This document shows, in pieces, positions 3,894-11,362 of a stretch of 24,361 nucleotides of DNA (positions within the stretch are counted from its first letter, which is position 1; every line of letters starts with the position of its first letter). The stretch is from IMG/VR virus record IMGVR_UViG_2700989535_000002; one strand, given 5' to 3'. The DNA is from a virus (taxonomy: Duplodnaviria; Heunggongvirae; Uroviricota; Caudoviricetes). The notes under the pieces are model-generated. The model ran no database searches and was not told where the DNA came from. It saw nothing but the letters and a program-made list of their open reading frames with translations. A program made the translations under genes and the position numbers.

Positions 3894-4165
3894 GTATTCG
3901 TATTGAAATTGGCGAACGTTATGTCGTTACCAGTGACAGCTTTCAGTTTATTCTCCACGAGAAAAAGAGAGCGGAAAGCGGTAAAAACGCCGGTCAGGAA
4001 TGGCTGGCGGTGGTTGGTTATTACCCGAAATTAAGCCAGCTCGTTTCAGGCCTGATGCATCACGATATTCTGACCGGAAGCGCAAAGTCTTTTGCTGATT
4101 TAAACGTGCAGGTTGAGCAACTCAGCAAGCGTTGTTCAGAGGCTTTTGGCTCATATGGCCGTTAA
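3890..4165 (+). CDS. Small early protein (P2 orf83 position)
   Basis: 91-aa ORF coupled to neighbours; ends 11 nt inside A. Confidence 0.55.
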   Translation: MSIRIEIGERYVVTSDSFQFILHEKKRAESGKNAGQEWLAVVGYYPKLSQLVSGLMHHDILTGSAKSFADLNVQVEQLSKRCSEAFGSYGR

Positions 4166-6443
4166 AGCCTCCGGGCGTTTTGTCCCTCCGTCAGCATTTG
4201 CCGCAGGCACCGGTAAGGCGTTTACCGGTGCTTATGCATGGAACGCGCCACGCGAGGCTGTCGGGCGCGAAAGACCCCTTACACGTGATGAGATGCGTCA
4301 GGTGCAAGGTGTTTTATCCACGATTAACCGCCTGCCTTACTTTTTGCGCTCGCTGTTTACTTCACGCTATGACTACATCCGGCGCAATAAAAGCCCGGTG
4401 CACGGGTTTTATTTTCTCACATCCACTTTTCAGCGTCGTTTATGGCCGCGCATTGAGCGTGTGAATCAGCGCCATGAAATGAACACCGACGCGTCGTTGC
4501 TGTTTCTGGCAGAGCGTGACCATTATGCGCGTCTGCCGGGGATGAATGACAAGGAGCTGAAAAAGTTTGCCGCCCGTATCTCATCGCAGCTTTTCATGAT
4601 GTATGAGGAACTCTGCGATGCCTGGGTGGATGCGCATGGCGAAAAAGAATCGCTGTTTACGGATGAGGCGCAGGCTCACCTCTATGGTCATGTTGCTGGT
4701 GCTGCACGTGCTTTCAATATTTCCCCTCTCTACTGGAAAAAATACCGTAAAGGGCAGATGACCACGAGGCAGGCATATTCTGCCATTGCCCGTCTGTTTA
4801 ACGATGAGTGGTGGACCCATCAGCTTAAAGGCCAGCGTATGCGCTGGCATGAGGCGTTACTGATTGCTGTCGGGGAGGTCAATAAAGACCGTTCTCCTTA
4901 TGCCAGTAAACATGCCATTCGTGATGTGCGTGCACGCCGCCAGGCAAATCTGGAATTTCTTAAATCGTGTGATCTCGAAAACAGGGAAACCGGCGAGCGC
5001 ATCGACCTTATCAGTAAGGTGATGGGCAGTATTTCTAATCCTGAAATTCGCCGGATGGAGCTGATGAACACCATTGCCGGTATTGAGCGTTACGCCGCAG
5101 CAGAGGGTGATGTGGGGATGTTTATCACGCTGACCGCGCCGTCAAAGTATCACCCGACACGTCAGGTCAGAAAAGGCGAAAGTAAAACCGTCCAGCTAAA
5201 TCACGGCTGGAACGATGAGGCATTTAATCCAAAGGATGCGCAGCGTTATCTCTGCCGTATCTGGAGCCTGATGCGCACGGCATTCAAGGATAATGATTTA
5301 CAGGTCTACGGTTTGCGTGTCGTCGAGCCACACCACGACGGAACGCCGCACTGGCATATGATGCTTTTTTGTAATCCGCGCCAGCGTAACCAGATTATCG
5401 AAATCATGCGTCGCTATGCGCTCAAAGAGGATGGCGACGAAAGAGGAGCCGCGCGAAACCGTTTTCAGGCAAAACATCTTAACCGGGGCGGTGCTGCGGG
5501 ATATATCGCGAAATACATTTCAAAAAACATCGACGGCTATGCACTGGATGGTCAGCTCGATAACGACACCGGCAGGCCGCTGAAAGACACTGCAGCGGCT
5601 GTTAGCGCATGGGCGTCAACGTGGCGCATCCCGCAATTTAAAACGGTTGGCCTGCCGACAATGGGGGCTTACCGTGAACTACGCAAATTGCCGCGCGGCG
5701 TCAGCATTGCTGATGAGTTTGACGAGCGCGTCGAGGCTGCACGCGCCGCCGCAGACAGTGGTGATTTTGCGTTGTATATCAGCGCGCAGGGTGGGGCAAA
5801 TGTCCCGCGCGATTGTCAGACTGTCAGAGTCGCCCGTAGCCCGTCGGATGACGTTAACGAGTACGAGGAAGAAGTCGAGAGAGTGGTCGGCATTTACGCG
5901 CCGCATCTCGGCGCGCGTCATATTCATATCACCAGAACGACGGACTGGCGCATTGTGCCGAAAGTTCCGGTCGTTGAGCCTTTGACTTTAAAAAGCGGCA
6001 TCGCCGCGCCTCGGAGTCCTGTCAATAACTGTGGAAAGCTCACCGGCGGTAATACTTCGTTACCGGTTCCCACGCCTTCTGAGCACGCCGCAGCAGTGCT
6101 TAATCTGGTTGATGACGGTGTTATCGAATGGAATGACCCGGAGGTCGTGAGGACGCTCAGGGGTGCATTAAAACACGGACTGAGAAGACCAAACCGTCAG
6201 CAAAGAAACGGAAGCCCGTTAAAACCACATGAAATTGCGCCATCGGCCAGACTGACCCGGTCGGAACGAATGCAAATCACCCGTATCCGCGTTGACCTTG
6301 CTCAGAACGGTATCAGGCCGCAGCGATGGGAGCTTGAGGCGCTGGCGCGTGGGGCAACCGTAAATTATGGCGGAAAAAAATTCACGTATCTGGTTGCTAA
6401 TGAGTGGTTCGGGTTTCAAGATGACGTGTCATTTTTCATATAA
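4155..6443 (+). CDS. A: Replication initiation endonuclease A (rolling-circle initiator)
   Basis: 762 aa from ATG at 4155 (track ORF begins at 4113). Large last gene of the early operon, same position and nearly same size as P2 A. Contains HxH-like GTPHWHMM and tyrosine-rich GYIAKYISKN segments typical of rolling-circle initiators. Confidence 0.85.
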   Translation: MAVKASGRFVPPSAFAAGTGKAFTGAYAWNAPREAVGRERPLTRDEMRQVQGVLSTINRLPYFLRSLFTSRYDYIRRNKSPVHGFYFLTSTFQRRLWPRIERVNQRHEMNTDASLLFLAERDHYARLPGMNDKELKKFAARISSQLFMMYEELCDAWVDAHGEKESLFTDEAQAHLYGHVAGAARAFNISPLYWKKYRKGQMTTRQAYSAIARLFNDEWWTHQLKGQRMRWHEALLIAVGEVNKDRSPYASKHAIRDVRARRQANLEFLKSCDLENRETGERIDLISKVMGSISNPEIRRMELMNTIAGIERYAAAEGDVGMFITLTAPSKYHPTRQVRKGESKTVQLNHGWNDEAFNPKDAQRYLCRIWSLMRTAFKDNDLQVYGLRVVEPHHDGTPHWHMMLFCNPRQRNQIIEIMRRYALKEDGDERGAARNRFQAKHLNRGGAAGYIAKYISKNIDGYALDGQLDNDTGRPLKDTAAAVSAWASTWRIPQFKTVGLPTMGAYRELRKLPRGVSIADEFDERVEAARAAADSGDFALYISAQGGANVPRDCQTVRVARSPSDDVNEYEEEVERVVGIYAPHLGARHIHITRTTDWRIVPKVPVVEPLTLKSGIAAPRSPVNNCGKLTGGNTSLPVPTPSEHAAAVLNLVDDGVIEWNDPEVVRTLRGALKHGLRRPNRQQRNGSPLKPHEIAPSARLTRSERMQITRIRVDLAQNGIRPQRWELEALARGATVNYGGKKFTYLVANEWFGFQDDVSFFI

Positions 6444-6619
6444 AACATTTCAAAATTCAATGTAATGAAAGCATATCGTATATCGCTTTAATATGTGTTA
6501 TTCTTCTTGGTTGTTAATGTTTGATTTTATATGAAAAAATATTATATATAGAAAGATCAAATACAACGGTTTACTTGTTATGATGCAATTATTGGTTAGT
6601 TAGTGAGATACATCGCCAT

Positions 6620-6860
6620 CAATTGGGTATTTTTTACCCGTGGAAAGTTAACACTTTCTACCGTTTACCCCGCGCAACGCCCCTGCCAGCGACAAGAGTC
6701 ACAGGACCAGGTGGTATGGCGTATGGGAATTCGAACCCTTTGGGCGACAAAGGGTTCGTGGAGCAGGGAGCTAGTGCTGTTCAATCTCATCCTTATGAGG
6801 GCGAACCATAGTGTTGGAGCAGACATACCGTTTGCACACTATGGGCATAAGGAGCAAATC
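6620..6860 (+). ncRNA. Candidate structured RNA / long 5' leader upstream of the RT operon (possible retron msr-msd)
   Basis: GC-richer than the flanking AT-rich spacer. Perfect hairpins: GAAAGT/ACTTTC (6643-6658), CGAACCCTTTG/CAAAGGGTTCG (6732-6758), and a composite stem CCTTATG..CCATAGTGT / ACACTATGG..CATAAGG (6791-6852) whose 3' arm overlaps the downstream SD. a1/a2 repeats not identified, so retron ncRNA identity is unproven. Confidence 0.3.
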
Positions 6861-7016
6861 ATGAAGAATGATAAATTAACCAACGAACAGCAGGCGCAGA
6901 ACAAGTCAAACCTGAAAAAGAGGGCTGGTTATGCTTGGGAATTATTCAAATGGGGTATTAGACTGTTTGATTTAGTCACTCGAGCACTGGGCTACTTAGA
7001 AGGGGGTGGTGAGTAA
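6861..7016 (+). CDS. Small 51-aa protein of unknown function
   Basis: ATG at 6861 with strong SD AAGGAG 6 nt upstream; polar N-terminus, amphipathic C-terminus (AGYAWELFKWGIRLFDLVTRALGYL). The longer GTG-initiated track ORF (6603) is not supported. Confidence 0.4.
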   Translation: MKNDKLTNEQQAQNKSNLKKRAGYAWELFKWGIRLFDLVTRALGYLEGGGE

Positions 7017-7052
7017 TGCGTCCTCCCTAGTTTCAATAGCATGGAGTTGCCT

Positions 7053-7361
7053 ATGTTACATAAAGCCCTTCGTTTAATAAGGCAATACCATAAAGAATCA
7101 ATAGTTGAGTTATCTTCATCTTTAGGTATTCCAAAAGACAAAATAGTATCGCTTGAAAGCGGAGTTTGGTCACCGTCGATTGAAGTCTTAGAGCGTTACG
7201 CCTCCCATTTCGACATACCAGTATCCTCTTTAGTATTCTTTTCGGAATCATTAGGCACGCAAGGCCGTTTGTCTAAGCGATTGCGTTTAAATTTAGCCGG
7301 TAAAGTTCTGGATGTTCTGGAGTGGGTAAGTAATAAAAATGAAAAAACGGAAAAAGCTTAA
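7053..7361 (+). CDS. XRE-family helix-turn-helix DNA-binding protein
   Basis: 102 aa from ATG at 7053 (GGAG 6 nt upstream). HTH_3-like segment LSSSLGIPKDKIVSLESGVWSPSIEVLERYASHFDIP. Its 3' end overlaps the RT start by 23 nt. Confidence 0.6.
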   Translation: MLHKALRLIRQYHKESIVELSSSLGIPKDKIVSLESGVWSPSIEVLERYASHFDIPVSSLVFFSESLGTQGRLSKRLRLNLAGKVLDVLEWVSNKNEKTEKA

Positions 7362-8289
7362 GGTTAATACTAAAAATAAATCTTATGACATAATGGATTC
7401 GCCATTTTACAAACTCAAAAGTAAAAGAAAACTGGCGAATTTGCTTTGTGTTAGTCTTGAAGAATTATACTCTTTGAGAAAAGATGAAGGAAACTATTCC
7501 GTTTTTGAGCAACTTTCTAAAAAAGGAAAAGCACGAAAAATACAAAAGCCTTTAGAAAAACTAGAACTTGTACATACACGAATTGCAAGTTTGTTATCAC
7601 GGATTGCTTTGCCAGAATATCTGCACTCGGGGAAGAAGAAGTGCTCTAATGTGACGAATGCTAAAGCTCATCTTAATAATGAAAAGATGATGACAACAGA
7701 TATTAAAGCTTTTTTTCCATCAACTACAAGAGGGATGATATTTTCTTTTTTCTTTTCGGTGATGAAAATGTCATCTGATGTTGCTGATGTTTTGTCCCAC
7801 ATATGTACTTGTCATGACCGATTACCAACAGGTAGTCGCATCAGTATGCCGTTGGCATATTTTGCAAATTCAAGAATGTTTGGTGAAATATATCAACTTT
7901 GCCAAAAGTTACGAGTTAACATGACTGTTTATGTTGATGATCTCACTTTTTCAGGTGGTAACGTAAATCGATTGTTTTGCGCTGTAATTCGTAAGATCGT
8001 TAATAAGCATGGACATGTTATACACCCAACGAAAACAAAATTATATGCCAGAGATAAGCCTAAGTTGGTAACTGGAGTTATTGTATTCGGTAATGCTTTA
8101 AAAGTTAGGAATGAGCAGCATTTTTTGATGGCTAGGGAAATAGATTATTGGAAAATAATTAAAGACGCCGAAAATGCGAGAGAAACAATCATTGCCAAAA
8201 AGCTCTTTGGCCGTTTGCATTCAATGGGAGTGATTGAGCAACGTTACAAATCGAAGGTGCTTACTTTAAAGGCTAATACTGCAAATTAA
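7339..8289 (+). CDS. Reverse transcriptase, retron-type
   Basis: 316 aa. NAKAH (NAxxH), TDIKAFFPS, LPTGSRISMPLAYFAN, YVDDLTFS (YxDD catalytic motif) and LVTGVIV (VTG) align motif-by-motif with retron RTs such as Ec86 as recalled. Alternative start at 7393 possible. Confidence 0.8.
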   Translation: MKKRKKLKVNTKNKSYDIMDSPFYKLKSKRKLANLLCVSLEELYSLRKDEGNYSVFEQLSKKGKARKIQKPLEKLELVHTRIASLLSRIALPEYLHSGKKKCSNVTNAKAHLNNEKMMTTDIKAFFPSTTRGMIFSFFFSVMKMSSDVADVLSHICTCHDRLPTGSRISMPLAYFANSRMFGEIYQLCQKLRVNMTVYVDDLTFSGGNVNRLFCAVIRKIVNKHGHVIHPTKTKLYARDKPKLVTGVIVFGNALKVRNEQHFLMAREIDYWKIIKDAENARETIIAKKLFGRLHSMGVIEQRYKSKVLTLKANTAN

Positions 8290-8412: not shown

Positions 8413-8850
8413 CTATGAAGCTGACGTCACAAAATTAACGCCAAGAGTCAACAGGTTTGTCACTGCTCCAGCAATTACACCTGGAGTTCCGTCTTTTACT
8501 GCACTGATAATTTTATCACCCATCGTTTCATTACCGCCAAGTGCTTCGGGTTTTTTGTTGAGCACCGCGAGTGCTTTCTCGGTCAGGCGCACATCATGAA
8601 AACCGGTCTGATGGTCTGTTCCGTACAGAATATAGCCGTTTTCGCTTAGGAAAGTGAATGTGCCATCAACCACACTACGCAACTGATTCAGTGCTTTCAT
8701 TTCTGGTGAGTTAAGTTGGTCAAAGTAGTCATCAGGTAACGCGGCGTTAAATTTTTTGTAGGTGATGACTTGTGGTACAGGAAAGTTATCCCATAGCACC
8801 GCAAAGATTTCTGCCGTCTGTTGGTTGAATAATTCGAGATTTTTGGACAT
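8413..8850 (-). CDS. Hypothetical tail-anchored membrane protein (145 aa)
   Basis: Minus-strand ORF with SD AGGGA 7 nt upstream of ATG; soluble N-terminal ~115 aa and C-terminal hydrophobic helix (GTPGVIAGAVTNLLTLGVNFV). Convergent with the RT operon. Confidence 0.6.
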   Translation of the reverse strand: MSKNLELFNQQTAEIFAVLWDNFPVPQVITYKKFNAALPDDYFDQLNSPEMKALNQLRSVVDGTFTFLSENGYILYGTDHQTGFHDVRLTEKALAVLNKKPEALGGNETMGDKIISAVKDGTPGVIAGAVTNLLTLGVNFVTSAS

Positions 8851-9386: not shown

Positions 9387-9461
9387 TGCCCGCATCCGTT
9401 GTTTTATGTTATTACTACATTGTTAAATTGGATGATTCTTATTTCTTGTGAGGAAGCTGTT

Positions 9462-10730
9462 ATGGCATTGATTGAAGGATTTCGAATATCAAATTTCAGG
9501 TCTCTGAAGAACGTTACGTTAGGAAAAACTTGGAACGATAGAACAAAGAAACCATTGACACCACTTACGGTTGTTATTGGGCGTAATGGTTCTGGAAAAA
9601 GTTCGCTTTTTGATGCATTTGGTTTCTTGGCTGATGCCCTTACCTATGGGGTAGAAGAAGCATGTCATAAGAATGGTCGCGGTGGCTTCGAACGCTTACG
9701 GTCTGCAGGGAGTAGTGAGGATATTGAATTCGAGATTTACTATAGAGAATCACCAAAAGACCGTCCAATCACATATGAATTGTCAATTGGCATTGATGCT
9801 ACTGGAAGACCTATAGTTAAGAAAGAAAGGTTGCGTCAGCGCAGGAGAGGTCAAAATAGAGGGTGGCCTTTCTCTTTTCTTGAATTATACAATGGAGTAG
9901 GAAAGGTTTGGTCAGGGGAATCTTTGTCAGAAAAAAATGAAGAGCATGGCAATATTGATGTTTTGTTAAGTGAAGAGTCTAATGGAACTATGCCAATCGA
10001 GCTAAGCAATACTCAAATGCTTGGTATTGCTACTTTAGGCAACTTGAAAGAGCATCCGAGAATAGCCAGATTCAGAAAATTTATTGAAGGCTGGTATCTT
10101 TCTTATTTTACTCCTGATGCTGCAAGAGATTTGCCTCGAGTTGGCCCGCAGAAACATCTAAATAGAATAGGTGATAACTTAGGCAATTTTGTTCAGTATA
10201 TGGAAAGAGAACATCCCAAAAAATTTAGACAGGTTCTTGAGGATATAGCCCTGAAGATTCCAGGAATTATAAAGATAGATACAGAAGCATCACCTGATGG
10301 AAGATTGCTTTTAAGGTTTTTTAACAAGGGTTTTGATAAACCATTTTATGCTCAACAAATATCTGATGGAACATTAAAACTGTTTGCTTACATGCTTCTC
10401 TTGGAAGATCCTGACCCTGCACCGTTTGTATGTATAGAGGAGCCAGAGAACGGCCTGTATCATAAATTATTACAATCTCTTGCAGAGGAATTTAGGAGCC
10501 ACGCTACAGGTAAGAAAGGTGATTCTCAGTTGTTTGTAACTACTCATCAACCATATTTTGTGGATGCACTCAATCCAGAGGAAGTATGGATATTAGAAAA
10601 AGAATCAGATGGCTTTTCCGTGCTGAGTAGAGCATCTGACTATCCTGATGTGATGGCAATGTATGAACAAGGATTGCCGTTAGGAAGTTTATGGTACAGT
10701 GATCACATTGATAGCAAGGAATTTGACTGA
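9462..10730 (+). CDS. ABC-type / AAA_21-like ATPase (OLD/AriA/AbiLi-like)
   Basis: 422 aa from ATG at 9462 (GAGGAAG SD; the track start at 9399 is TTG). N-terminal FRISNFRSL ... VVIGRNGSGKSSLFDAF (Walker A); C-terminal FVCIEEPENGLYH (Walker B/D-loop) and FVTTHQPYF (H-loop). Confidence 0.85.
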   Translation: MALIEGFRISNFRSLKNVTLGKTWNDRTKKPLTPLTVVIGRNGSGKSSLFDAFGFLADALTYGVEEACHKNGRGGFERLRSAGSSEDIEFEIYYRESPKDRPITYELSIGIDATGRPIVKKERLRQRRRGQNRGWPFSFLELYNGVGKVWSGESLSEKNEEHGNIDVLLSEESNGTMPIELSNTQMLGIATLGNLKEHPRIARFRKFIEGWYLSYFTPDAARDLPRVGPQKHLNRIGDNLGNFVQYMEREHPKKFRQVLEDIALKIPGIIKIDTEASPDGRLLLRFFNKGFDKPFYAQQISDGTLKLFAYMLLLEDPDPAPFVCIEEPENGLYHKLLQSLAEEFRSHATGKKGDSQLFVTTHQPYFVDALNPEEVWILEKESDGFSVLSRASDYPDVMAMYEQGLPLGSLWYSDHIDSKEFD

Positions 10731-11362
10731 TGCATTATGAGATCTTAGTCGAGGGACAATGTGAACTAACTGCTCTTTCAATTCTATTACCTAAGATTAT
10801 TGGAGAGTATAATAATCCACATACTTGGAAAATACATAAACATAGAGGTAATGGTTCTATTCCTGATAACCCAGCATTAGCTCCAAAAATTTCAGATACT
10901 TCACTCTTGGGGCAATTGCCTGCAAAATTAAGGGCTTACTCCAATAATCCAGACCCTAATAGAAAAGTGATTGTATTATTAGATCTAGATGATAAAGATC
11001 GAGAATCGTTCCATACGGCTCTAATTGACTTGTTAAAATATTGTTCGAATCCGTTTGATGTGTCATTTCCTTTTGCAGAAGAGGAATTAGAAGCATGGTA
11101 CCTTGGTGATAGACAAGCATTGATAGCTTACAATGCAAAAATCAATATGACAAAACTAAATGGCTATATTCAAGACTCAATATGTGATACATGGCGTTTT
11201 TTATTAGAGGCTGATGAGCCTTCACTGTTAAAACTGAAAAAGAAAGATAAAAGACTGCTTGAAAAGAAAGTTTTCTGGGCTAAAAAAATTACTCCTCATA
11301 TGGATGTTGATAGGAATTTATCGCCTAGTTTTAATAGTTTTAAAGAATGTTTGCATAATTAA
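10730..11362 (+). CDS. TOPRIM-like small protein (DUF4276/DUF4435-style) partnered with the ATPase
   Basis: 210 aa; start overlaps the ATPase stop (TGATG). N-terminal ILVEGQCE and VIVLLDLDD (DxD) resemble TOPRIM/OLD-family nuclease motifs; EEELEAWYLGD downstream. Confidence 0.6.
   Translation: MHYEILVEGQCELTALSILLPKIIGEYNNPHTWKIHKHRGNGSIPDNPALAPKISDTSLLGQLPAKLRAYSNNPDPNRKVIVLLDLDDKDRESFHTALIDLLKYCSNPFDVSFPFAEEELEAWYLGDRQALIAYNAKINMTKLNGYIQDSICDTWRFLLEADEPSLLKLKKKDKRLLEKKVFWAKKITPHMDVDRNLSPSFNSFKECLHN

Follow-up and report, generated by a model that had tools for sequence, protein, structure and literature searches.

A structured RNA upstream of a Type VI retron operon in a P2-like prophage is probably the non-coding 5′ domain of a hybrid RNA

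Here we describe a structured RNA element in a 24,361-nt stretch of viral DNA (IMG/VR record IMGVR_UViG_2700989535_000002; hereafter the window), which corresponds to a P2-like prophage. We propose that positions 6620-6860, upstream of a retron reverse transcriptase (RT) operon, are probably the 5′ non-coding part of the hybrid RNA (hyRNA) of a Type VI retron, in which, by analogy with Retron-Vpa2, translation of a small protein (SP) would be derepressed by multicopy single-stranded DNA (msDNA). The stem that buries the Shine-Dalgarno (SD) sequence of the SP gene is conserved and compensated among homologues, and the element extends beyond 6620-6860 to ~6590-7045, the SP open reading frame (ORF) included. 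Features of this kind were described in 2025-2026, so that no discovery is claimed; within the Vpa2 lineage, the locus stands as a native representative from E. coli and a P2 prophage. A first-pass annotation, which read the raw sequence alone, had suggested either a retron msr-msd RNA or a cis-acting leader. On the basis of the RT_VI and HTH_VI matches, the Vpa2-like anatomy and the compensated SD stem, the element appears to be both, and that annotation recovered a recently described, unusual regulatory design at the correct coordinates.

Assignment to Type VI retrons

The genes downstream of the structured interval match the PADLOC profiles HTH_VI and RT_VI, and we therefore assign the locus by profile similarity to the Type VI retrons (classification of Mestre et al. 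2020 / PADLOC retron VI), placed in the gpA-portal hotspot of P2. The RT_VI match spans positions 1-278 of the 279-position profile, with the runner-up retron profile at 4.7e-45. The RT carries the motifs YVDD, NAKAH and LVTGV (VTG, motif 7), of which YVDD and LVTGV are invariant in 26 homologues; VTG is a signature of retron RTs (PMC8632793). The genes that define the type are all present at the locus, namely one for an RT_VI protein (retron clade 3) with YxDD and VTG, an overlapping gene for a Cro/C1-type helix-turn-helix (HTH) protein and a small protein encoded upstream, in the order SP-HTH-RT with the RT gene start overlapping the HTH gene by 23 nt. For the HTH gene the most likely start codon is ATG 7053 (preceded by GGAG, 7043-46) and not the first ATG, 7041. 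The HTH_VI match begins at residue 5 of the longer ORF, and the start at 7053 is supported by RefSeq annotations of homologues and by the Vpa2-like HTH, which begin at a MLHKALRLIRQYH-type N-terminus.

Architecture and covariation of the predicted hybrid RNA

Homologous loci were gathered from an alignment of RT homologues (genomes, IMG/VR and metagenomes), and the RNA-plus-SP region was located by nhmmer. The resulting set of 42 sequences with <95% identity was aligned with MAFFT (alignment A3), and pairing percentages and counts of changed pairs refer to this set unless another number is given.

The interval 6620-6860 is strongly structured, as the first-pass annotation had claimed: its RNAfold energy is -92.2 kcal/mol compared with -69.7 ± 4.8 kcal/mol in 200 dinucleotide shuffles (z = -4.66), none of which was as good. 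Folding of 6560-6870, proposed there as a check, gave z = -4.62. The whole predicted hyRNA at 6590-7045 has a minimum free energy (MFE) structure of -159.7 kcal/mol (z = -4.74), which holds all nested helices of the unbiased scan described below. The features of the locus, where IR denotes an inverted repeat, are as follows.

6576-6584 (+), inferred promoter with extended -10 element TGtTATGAT; weak -35 near 6556-6561, predicted start ~6590
6590-7045 (+), predicted hyRNA comprising msr-msd-like domain, riboregulator, SP ORF and 3′ IR arm; ends inferred
6605-6609 (+), 5′ strand GAGAU of a crossing helix, pairs with AUCUC 6784-6788
6624-6640 (+), msr-like stem-loop SLa, 6 bp; 98.4% paired, 4/6 pairs changed on both sides
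6642-6659 (+), msr-like stem-loop SLb, GGAAAGU/ACUUUCU, 7 bp with one G-U, loop UAAC; 97.5% paired, 5/7 pairs changed on both sides
6669-6727 (+), variable long stem-loop, predicted main msd stem; closed stem in 42/42 homologues
6732-6758 (+), conserved hairpin HP, 10 perfect bp, loop GGGCGAC; base 91.6% paired, 6/7 pairs changed on both sides
6759-6770 (+), IR 5′ arm (a1/a2-like), pairs with 7023-7035; 12 pairs, one bulge
6775-6782 (+), 5′ strand of helix J2, pairs with 6885-6892, closing the riboregulator arm
6784-6788 (+), 3′ strand AUCUC of the crossing helix, immediately beside the anti-SD strand
6790-6797 (+), anti-SD strand UCCUUAUG, pairs with 6846-6853
6799-6805 (+), direct repeat DR2 (GGGCGAA), located in the internal loop that separates the anti-SD helix from the inner hairpin
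6806-6844 (+), inner riboregulator hairpin, 9 bp (6806-14/6836-44) plus 6 bp (6819-24/6830-35)
6846-6854 (+), SD strand CAUAAGGA, opposite the anti-SD strand and containing SD AAGGAG (6849-6854)
6861-7016 (+), SP, 51 aa, putative toxic effector; ORF matching phrog_15287 (1.7e-32)
7017-7035 (+), non-coding tail 3′ of the SP stop codon, made up of J3 3′ strand (7017-7022) and IR 3′ arm (7023-7035)
7053-7361 (+), HTH protein (Cro/C1 type), 102 aa; PADLOC HTH_VI 7.7e-31
7339-8289 (+), retron RT, 316 aa; PADLOC RT_VI 2.8e-105, RVT_1

The three hairpins called in the first-pass annotation all exist, the first at 6642-6659 (7 bp including one G-U), the second at 6732-6758 (10 perfect bp) and the third as a composite stem with an outer helix (6791-97/6846-52) and inner helices of 9 bp and 6 bp. 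SLa and the variable stem are further stems within 6620-6860, and structure runs on through the SP to 7035.

An unbiased scan for helices, which sought antiparallel runs of columns where standard pairs make up at least 80% and several types of pair occur, returned J2 (6775-82/6885-92) as its top match. The same scan recovered the base of HP, SLb (6642-48/6653-59), J3 (6893-97/7018-22), SLa (6624-29/6635-40), the IR in two parts (6759-63/7031-35 and 6766-69/7024-27) and the crossing helix (6605-09/6784-88). Covariation across homologous loci, which the first-pass annotation had named as a way to check its stems, bears the structure out. In the proposed structure 85.1% of cells were paired, compared with 70.2% in 500 shuffles (0 as high) and 43-48% when partners were slid by 1-3 columns, and the covariation score was 0.421 compared with 0.197 in shuffles and at most 0.157 with slid partners; the SD stem was among the compensated helices.

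Pairing reached 98.2% in J2 (8/8 pairs changed on both sides), 94.7% in the crossing helix (2/5), 94.3% in J3 (5/5) and 85.2% in the IR (12/12). The changes in the crossing helix comprise A-U to G-C in 8 sequences and a G-C/U-A split of 19/16. IR, J2 and J3 (6893-98/7017-22) join three arms at a central node, with compensatory changes in all three helices, and J2 and J3 clamp the SP ORF into the three-way junction. Two short elements are conserved in other ways: the tail motif GTYCCCCYTAGTTTC is kept in 42/42 homologues though non-coding, and the SLa-SLb junction at 6639-6643 (C-G-N-G-G) is invariant or nearly so beyond pairing needs, and may be a protein contact or priming site.

Sequestration of the SP ribosome-binding site

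The SD sequence AAGGAG (6849-6854) of the SP gene (ATG 6861) lies in the 3′ arm of the composite stem, where CCUUAUG (6791-97) pairs with CAUAAGG (6846-52) in a helix extendable to 8 bp (6790-97/6846-53). This agrees with the first-pass annotation, in which the last stem overlapped the ribosome-binding site (RBS). In the plain MAFFT alignment the anti-SD/SD helix is 80.6-84% paired and 8/8 pairs have changed on both sides; RNAalifold applied to the riboregulator arm of this alignment recovered only J2, owing to indels within the arm. Because indels blur the alignment there, the arm was folded separately for each homologue. Single-sequence MFE structures contained an outer helix of at least 5 bp in 41/42 homologues, in which a distal strand pairs with the one immediately 5′ of the GCGA repeat; the helix ends a median of 7 nt ahead of the start codon. 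Pairing of the SD motif with the anti-SD strand involved at least 3 nt in 39/40 homologues and the whole motif in 32/40. The SD-burying stem is therefore a conserved feature, and it is compensated.

Compensatory changes are also visible in the alignment of the inner hairpin (6806-6844), where the column-wise count is weakened by indels. In the more distant half of the family (homologues such as L139, L165, L166 and L016) the inner hairpin of the riboregulator consists of one stem only, with a conserved CAATTYCG in the loop (A3 columns 359-380).

The first-pass annotation had further proposed two exclusive folds, in which a small CTCAT/ATGAG hairpin competes for the 5′ arm. Such a hairpin can be drawn (6786-90/6795-99), but it is not conserved, being 52% paired (background) and showing no compensation. 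The conserved partner of AUCUC (6784-88) is GAGAU (6605-09) rather than the strand of the competing hairpin. The suggestion of a leader gating the operon holds in part: the gate is on the 51-aa SP, but not demonstrably on the whole operon.

The SP ORF as part of the RNA fold

The SP is conserved in E. coli variants, and its wider homologues measure 47-56 aa. Its ORF is embedded in the RNA fold via the J2 3′ strand (6885-92) and the J3 5′ strand (6893-98). At SP codons 9-11, the J2 3′ strand (6885-6892) becomes TTTTGGCA (F-W-Q) in distant homologues instead of GAACAGCA (E-Q-Q), and the 5′ J2 strand (6775-82) shows matching changes. Since the peptide changes from EQQ to FWQ while the pairing stays, we conclude that selection at these codons is on the RNA.

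No credible ORF lies 5′ of the SP, as the first-pass annotation had stated, because the 137-aa ORF at 6603-7016 (from GTG 6603) does no more than prolong the 51-aa ORF upstream in the same frame, and because the region upstream of the SP changes length in homologues by non-multiples of three (variable stem segment 47-119 nt). The SP also matches phrog_5826, a 97-residue profile, at positions 47-97, its C-terminal half. Together with the in-frame 137-aa ORF, this match suggests that the ORF is probably annotated too long in some public records, running across the non-coding RNA.

Predicted msd, loop repeats and the ORF-split inverted repeat

Between SLb and HP, all 42 homologues fold one closed stem with a span of 43-115 nt (median 60) and a barely conserved sequence. 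A variable closed stem in this place is a hallmark of msd, and from these folds we predict that it is the template for most of the msDNA; by analogy with Vpa2, HP is the predicted template of the msDNA 5′ stem-loop. The loop of HP contains direct repeat DR1, GGGCGAC (6742-6748), which is identical at 6/7 positions to DR2, GGGCGAA (6799-6805), and both copies are in loops of the MFE structure. In each of the 42 homologous loci DR1 has 5-9 nt in common with DR2, and both copies alter together in other lineages, where the versions GGTGATCC, GGGCGAAG, GGGCGAAT and GGCGACACC are found.

The first-pass annotation could not identify the a1/a2 inverted repeats. An a1/a2-like repeat is in fact present. 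Its first arm, 6759-6770, directly follows the msd hairpin, and its second arm, 7023-7035, comes after the SP stop codon and is outside 6620-6860. With the second arm located 3′ of the SP stop codon, the SP ORF is enclosed by the fold. A pair of a1/a2 repeats at both ends of a compact, RT-adjacent non-coding RNA (ncRNA) was not found, the sole 5′-end candidate being the 5-bp helix 6605-09/6784-88. Rfam gave no match for the whole window at the gathering score, and only a chance long non-coding RNA match for 6500-7100 at E <= 10.

In the distant half of the family, a run of T resembling an intrinsic terminator follows the IR 3′ arm (A3 columns 612-632). Such a terminator could explain why the hyRNA outnumbers the HTH-RT message.

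Promoter and transcript ends

The promoter was inferred from the alignment of homologues and the published RNA length. Positions 6576-84 align with the TTGACx-17-TAnnAT promoters of distant members, while a consensus promoter scan did not flag 6576-6584. In the Vibrio parahaemolyticus locus L205 (see below), the promoter TTGCAA-17-TATTGT is at the aligned position and predicts an RNA of ~460-470 nt, which equals the published hyRNA size. From the inferred promoter and the conserved fold end at 7035, the predicted window RNA has a length of ~450-455 nt, compared with the reported ~470 nt of Vpa2, and the window transcript should start near 6590.

RNAfold also offered a basal stem (6568-82/6846-60) as an a1/a2-like pair holding the SD. 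We rejected this stem, which overlaps the inferred -10 element and is 46% paired across homologues (background), or 61% within Enterobacterales, with no compensation. If the transcript starts near 6590, this alternative pairing of the SD falls away.

Comparison with Retron-Vpa2

Zhang et al. studied Retron-Vpa2, a Type VI retron of the 'Large' lineage, and also examined whether its E. coli relative Eco12 produces msDNA and defends against phage (10.1101/2025.10.22.683967). In Vpa2, an abundant ~470-nt hybrid RNA unites msr-msd and the SP ORF and has three arms around a central node, with the SP's RBS and its start codon sequestered; its 3′ end anneals back by a1/a2-like inverted repeats next to the msr-msd arm, and a conserved 7-nt direct repeat is found in the msd loop and the riboregulator loop (10.1101/2025.10.22.683967). 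The SP is toxic, and so are deletion of the non-coding part and mutation of the HTH (10.1101/2025.10.22.683967). The msDNA is undetectable at rest and accumulates once phage recombination functions trigger it; msDNA with its 5′ stem-loop suffices in trans for SP translation, and this 23-nt stem-loop, which bears the 7-nt repeat, is required to switch on SP translation (10.1101/2025.10.22.683967). RT-dependent DNA of Vpa2 maps to 'a long stem loop' of msr-msd, defence requires RT catalysis, and Eco12 likewise has no detectable msDNA at rest (10.1101/2025.10.22.683967). RT-dependent single-stranded DNA (ssDNA) and anti-phage defence are known among Type VI retrons only for Vpa2, Eco12 and Sen3 (10.1101/2025.10.22.683967; 10.64898/2026.04.27.721009).

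Neither of these two preprints, nor the supplementary tables of Zhang et al., gives a sequence or accession for Eco12 or Vpa2. We take L205 as Retron-Vpa2 because its SP (K15, I39, F43 and F45) and HTH (R7) have the residues mutated in the Vpa2 study and because its SP has the stated length of 55 aa. The window retron may be Retron-Eco12 itself.

The order of promoter, ncRNA, SP, HTH and RT is the same in Vpa2 and the window. The MFE structures of L205 and the window also have the same helix order, namely SLa, SLb, variable stem, repeat hairpin, IR, J2, anti-SD/SD and J3, and the window shares with the Vpa2 type the three-arm junction, the sequestered SP RBS and the repeat in the msd and riboregulator loops. 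The RTs are 55% identical (P0075) and the HTH proteins 48% identical, with R7 conserved. The position and size of the SP, its K15 and its hydrophobic residues at 39, 43 and 45 parallel the Vpa2 SP, although the window SP has 51 aa compared with 55 aa. The two loci also differ in their repeats, GGGCGA(C/A) in the window and GGACGAA in L205, and the host element of the window retron is, unlike that of Vpa2, a P2-like prophage.

The structured interval could instead be a canonical msr-msd ncRNA, giving an abundant branched msDNA that is always made and acts as antitoxin, with the SD overlap incidental. The window does share with canonical retron RNA (Retron-Eco1/Ec86) a VTG-type RT downstream, small 5′ stem-loops followed by a long variable msd-like stem, and an IR abutting the template 3′ end. 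However, a1/a2 repeats are missing from the ends of a compact RT-adjacent RNA: the second IR arm is at the 3′ end of the coding region and not at the RNA 5′ end, so that the layout is in effect permuted, and the SP and HTH genes intervene between RNA and RT. No retron or other relevant Rfam family matches, even at E <= 10, and the SD pairing is conserved with compensation. The msDNA of the Vpa2 lineage is undetectable at rest and is reported as an activator, not an antitoxin (10.1101/2025.10.22.683967). We regard a canonical ncRNA as very improbable.

Equally, the sequestered SD and the U-rich, terminator-like tract after the IR 3′ arm of distant homologues would suit a leader acting purely in cis (riboswitch, thermosensor or attenuator), with the operon controlled from a region never reverse-transcribed. 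The element co-occurs with RT_VI across Gammaproteobacteria, however, and it has the hypervariable closed stem typical of msd and a duplicated loop repeat. In the homologous Vpa2, RT-dependent DNA maps to the variable stem and defence requires RT catalysis (10.1101/2025.10.22.683967). We regard a purely cis-acting leader, too, as very improbable.

Proposed mechanism

Following the Vpa2 precedent, RT and HTH would be bound to the hyRNA in the uninfected cell, with no build-up of complementary DNA (cDNA) and the SP untranslated. Phage recombination or anti-RecBCD functions would then lead to the accumulation of msDNA, as cDNA copied from ~6758 back through 6669 with a predicted length of ~90 nt. 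The 5′ hairpin loop of this msDNA (5′-GTCGCCC) would pair with GGGCGA (6799-6804) and open the adjacent anti-SD helix, and the SD thus freed would allow the toxic SP to be made and the growth of the infected cell to be arrested. Since J2, J3 and the IR use coding or flanking sequence, SP translation and the priming fold should be mutually exclusive on a single RNA molecule. When the complete predicted msDNA was run against the riboregulator arm in RNAduplex, the result was giant looped duplexes spanning everything, which were discarded as uninformative.

Toehold-type riboregulators and anti-antisense activation by small RNAs, such as DsrA-rpoS, use a comparable arrangement, in which the SD is held in a hairpin and an exposed adjacent loop is complementary to a trans-acting nucleic acid. 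In contrast to these, the activator at the window locus would be DNA reverse-transcribed from the same RNA, and the exposed complementarity is only 6 nt.

The main rival to msDNA-triggered derepression comes from Retron-Sen3 (cl2075), for which Garcia-Rodriguez et al. describe a structured ncRNA, an SD predicted to be sequestered and pairing over long range around the SP ORF (10.64898/2026.04.27.721009). In Sen3, ssDNA (112 + 145 nt) and SP are constitutive and control is post-translational via the HTH antitoxin (10.64898/2026.04.27.721009). Transferred to the window, this would mean that the SP is made constitutively and neutralised by HTH, that ssDNA is constitutive and that SD pairing tunes expression or scaffolds an RT-HTH-RNA complex. 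The precedent is an enterobacterial Type VI retron in which SD sequestration was likewise predicted (10.64898/2026.04.27.721009), and the HTH mutant is toxic in Vpa2 too (10.1101/2025.10.22.683967). Since Sen3 makes its SP constitutively despite a predicted sequestered SD, SD pairing alone does not prove translational gating. Both loci have the SP-HTH-RT module, a structured ncRNA within ~280 nt of the SP start, an IR 3′ arm just past the SP stop codon and an SP coding region under selection for RNA structure.

Sen3 belongs to the cl2075 lineage, and its SP has 79 aa with an N-terminal extension of ~25 residues, whereas the window SP has 51 aa and no extension; its internal stem measures ~166 nt, compared with the 59-nt variable stem of the window. 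The Sen3 SD is in a basal stem with the 5′ end, whereas the equivalent stem in the window (6568-82/6846-60) uses the promoter and is unconserved. Moreover, the window fold matches that of L205, taken as Vpa2, helix for helix, and Eco12 has no detectable msDNA at rest (10.1101/2025.10.22.683967). Control of the Sen3 kind is in our judgement unlikely at the window locus. We rejected cl2075/Sen3 membership of the window on account of the 51-aa SP and the lack of a conserved 5′/3′ basal stem; loci with RTs 47% identical to that of the window were likewise rejected as cl2075, their SPs being 50-54 aa.

Besides this precedent of predicted SD sequestration with a constitutive SP under HTH antitoxin control, several observations weigh against derepression of the SP by msDNA. 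At the window locus, the hyRNA with its ends, the msDNA and the toxicity of the SP are predictions from sequence and homology. The similarity of the SP to the Vpa2 SP is weak in pairwise comparison (E = 0.057). DR1 and DR2 of the window share only 6 nt, a short duplex, and although own-locus identity of DR1 and DR2 exceeds that in all 5,000 permutations, these ignore shared ancestry. The window and its close relatives have a start-codon hairpin (6858-62/6868-72), but across the 42-sequence alignment its pairing is only ~53%. The alignment has no invariant G after either candidate a1 helix that could serve as the branching G: G6615 of the UCGCC motif is A in some homologues, and there is no fixed G after 7035.

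Derepression by msDNA remains the reading that we favour, and the crossing helix may add to it. Helix 6605-09/6784-88 crosses both IR and J2, all three with compensatory changes, and abuts the anti-SD strand, so that from the alignment it would be either a pseudoknot or an alternative conformer. Tentatively, and against the balance of probability, the hyRNA could be a true switch or pseudoknot that couples docking of the 5′ msr to SD release, combined with a trigger in which a DNA loop and an RNA loop kiss over 6-9 nt. Docking of the msr may in that case be controlled by RT/HTH, or lost as the template is copied and degraded, and the fact that DR1 and DR2 evolve in concert would point to the kissing contact of only 6-9 nt as the trigger. 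The two preprints mention in their text neither the crossing-helix switch nor the DR1/DR2 kissing trigger, and the crossing 5-bp helix and the concerted change of DR1 and DR2 are possibly new.

The helix map provides mutational targets in the ORF-split a1/a2-like repeat, J2 in codons 9-11, the crossing helix and the loop repeats that vary in concert, which can help to choose between the two published models, translational derepression by msDNA and post-translational HTH-SP control.

Genomic context

The window encodes an integrase, C repressor, Cox, gpA (4113-6443) and portal, terminase, scaffold and capsid genes of the P2-like prophage. The structured element is just 3′ of gpA, in a variable cargo site ahead of the portal gene. 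Among 5,426 complete E. coli genomes, 100 carry the segment, on the chromosome in every case, and the copies fall into identity classes of ~99, 96 and 82-84%. It was also found in Peduovirus P22H1 (95.5% identity) and in P2-like Klebsiella phages.

Cargo genes beside the retron differ between strains. In the window, a 145-aa ORF on the minus strand (8413-8850), convergent with the RT gene, matches phrog_2266 (2.4e-61) and has no Pfam or PADLOC match. This ORF also follows the retron in E. coli O157:H7 (L001), and its place is taken by an FRG-domain protein in L002 and L003 and by another hypothetical protein in L004. Since the neighbouring gene is swapped among strains, the retron travels as a separate module. 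A diverged ncRNA-SP-HTH-RT copy lies outside any P2 prophage in L005 (E. coli C5, NZ_CP010122.1 2216113-2222325), where it adjoins yeiP/yeiQ and has a gene for a DUF4236 protein and a split YkgJ gene beside it.

The P2 cargo site of the window also holds a second candidate defence system, at 9399-11362 on the plus strand, which starts with an AAA_21 ATPase (PADLOC HEC-01A, 2.6e-190). It is followed by a DUF4276 protein (HEC-01B, 7.5e-81) whose start codon overlaps the ATPase stop codon.

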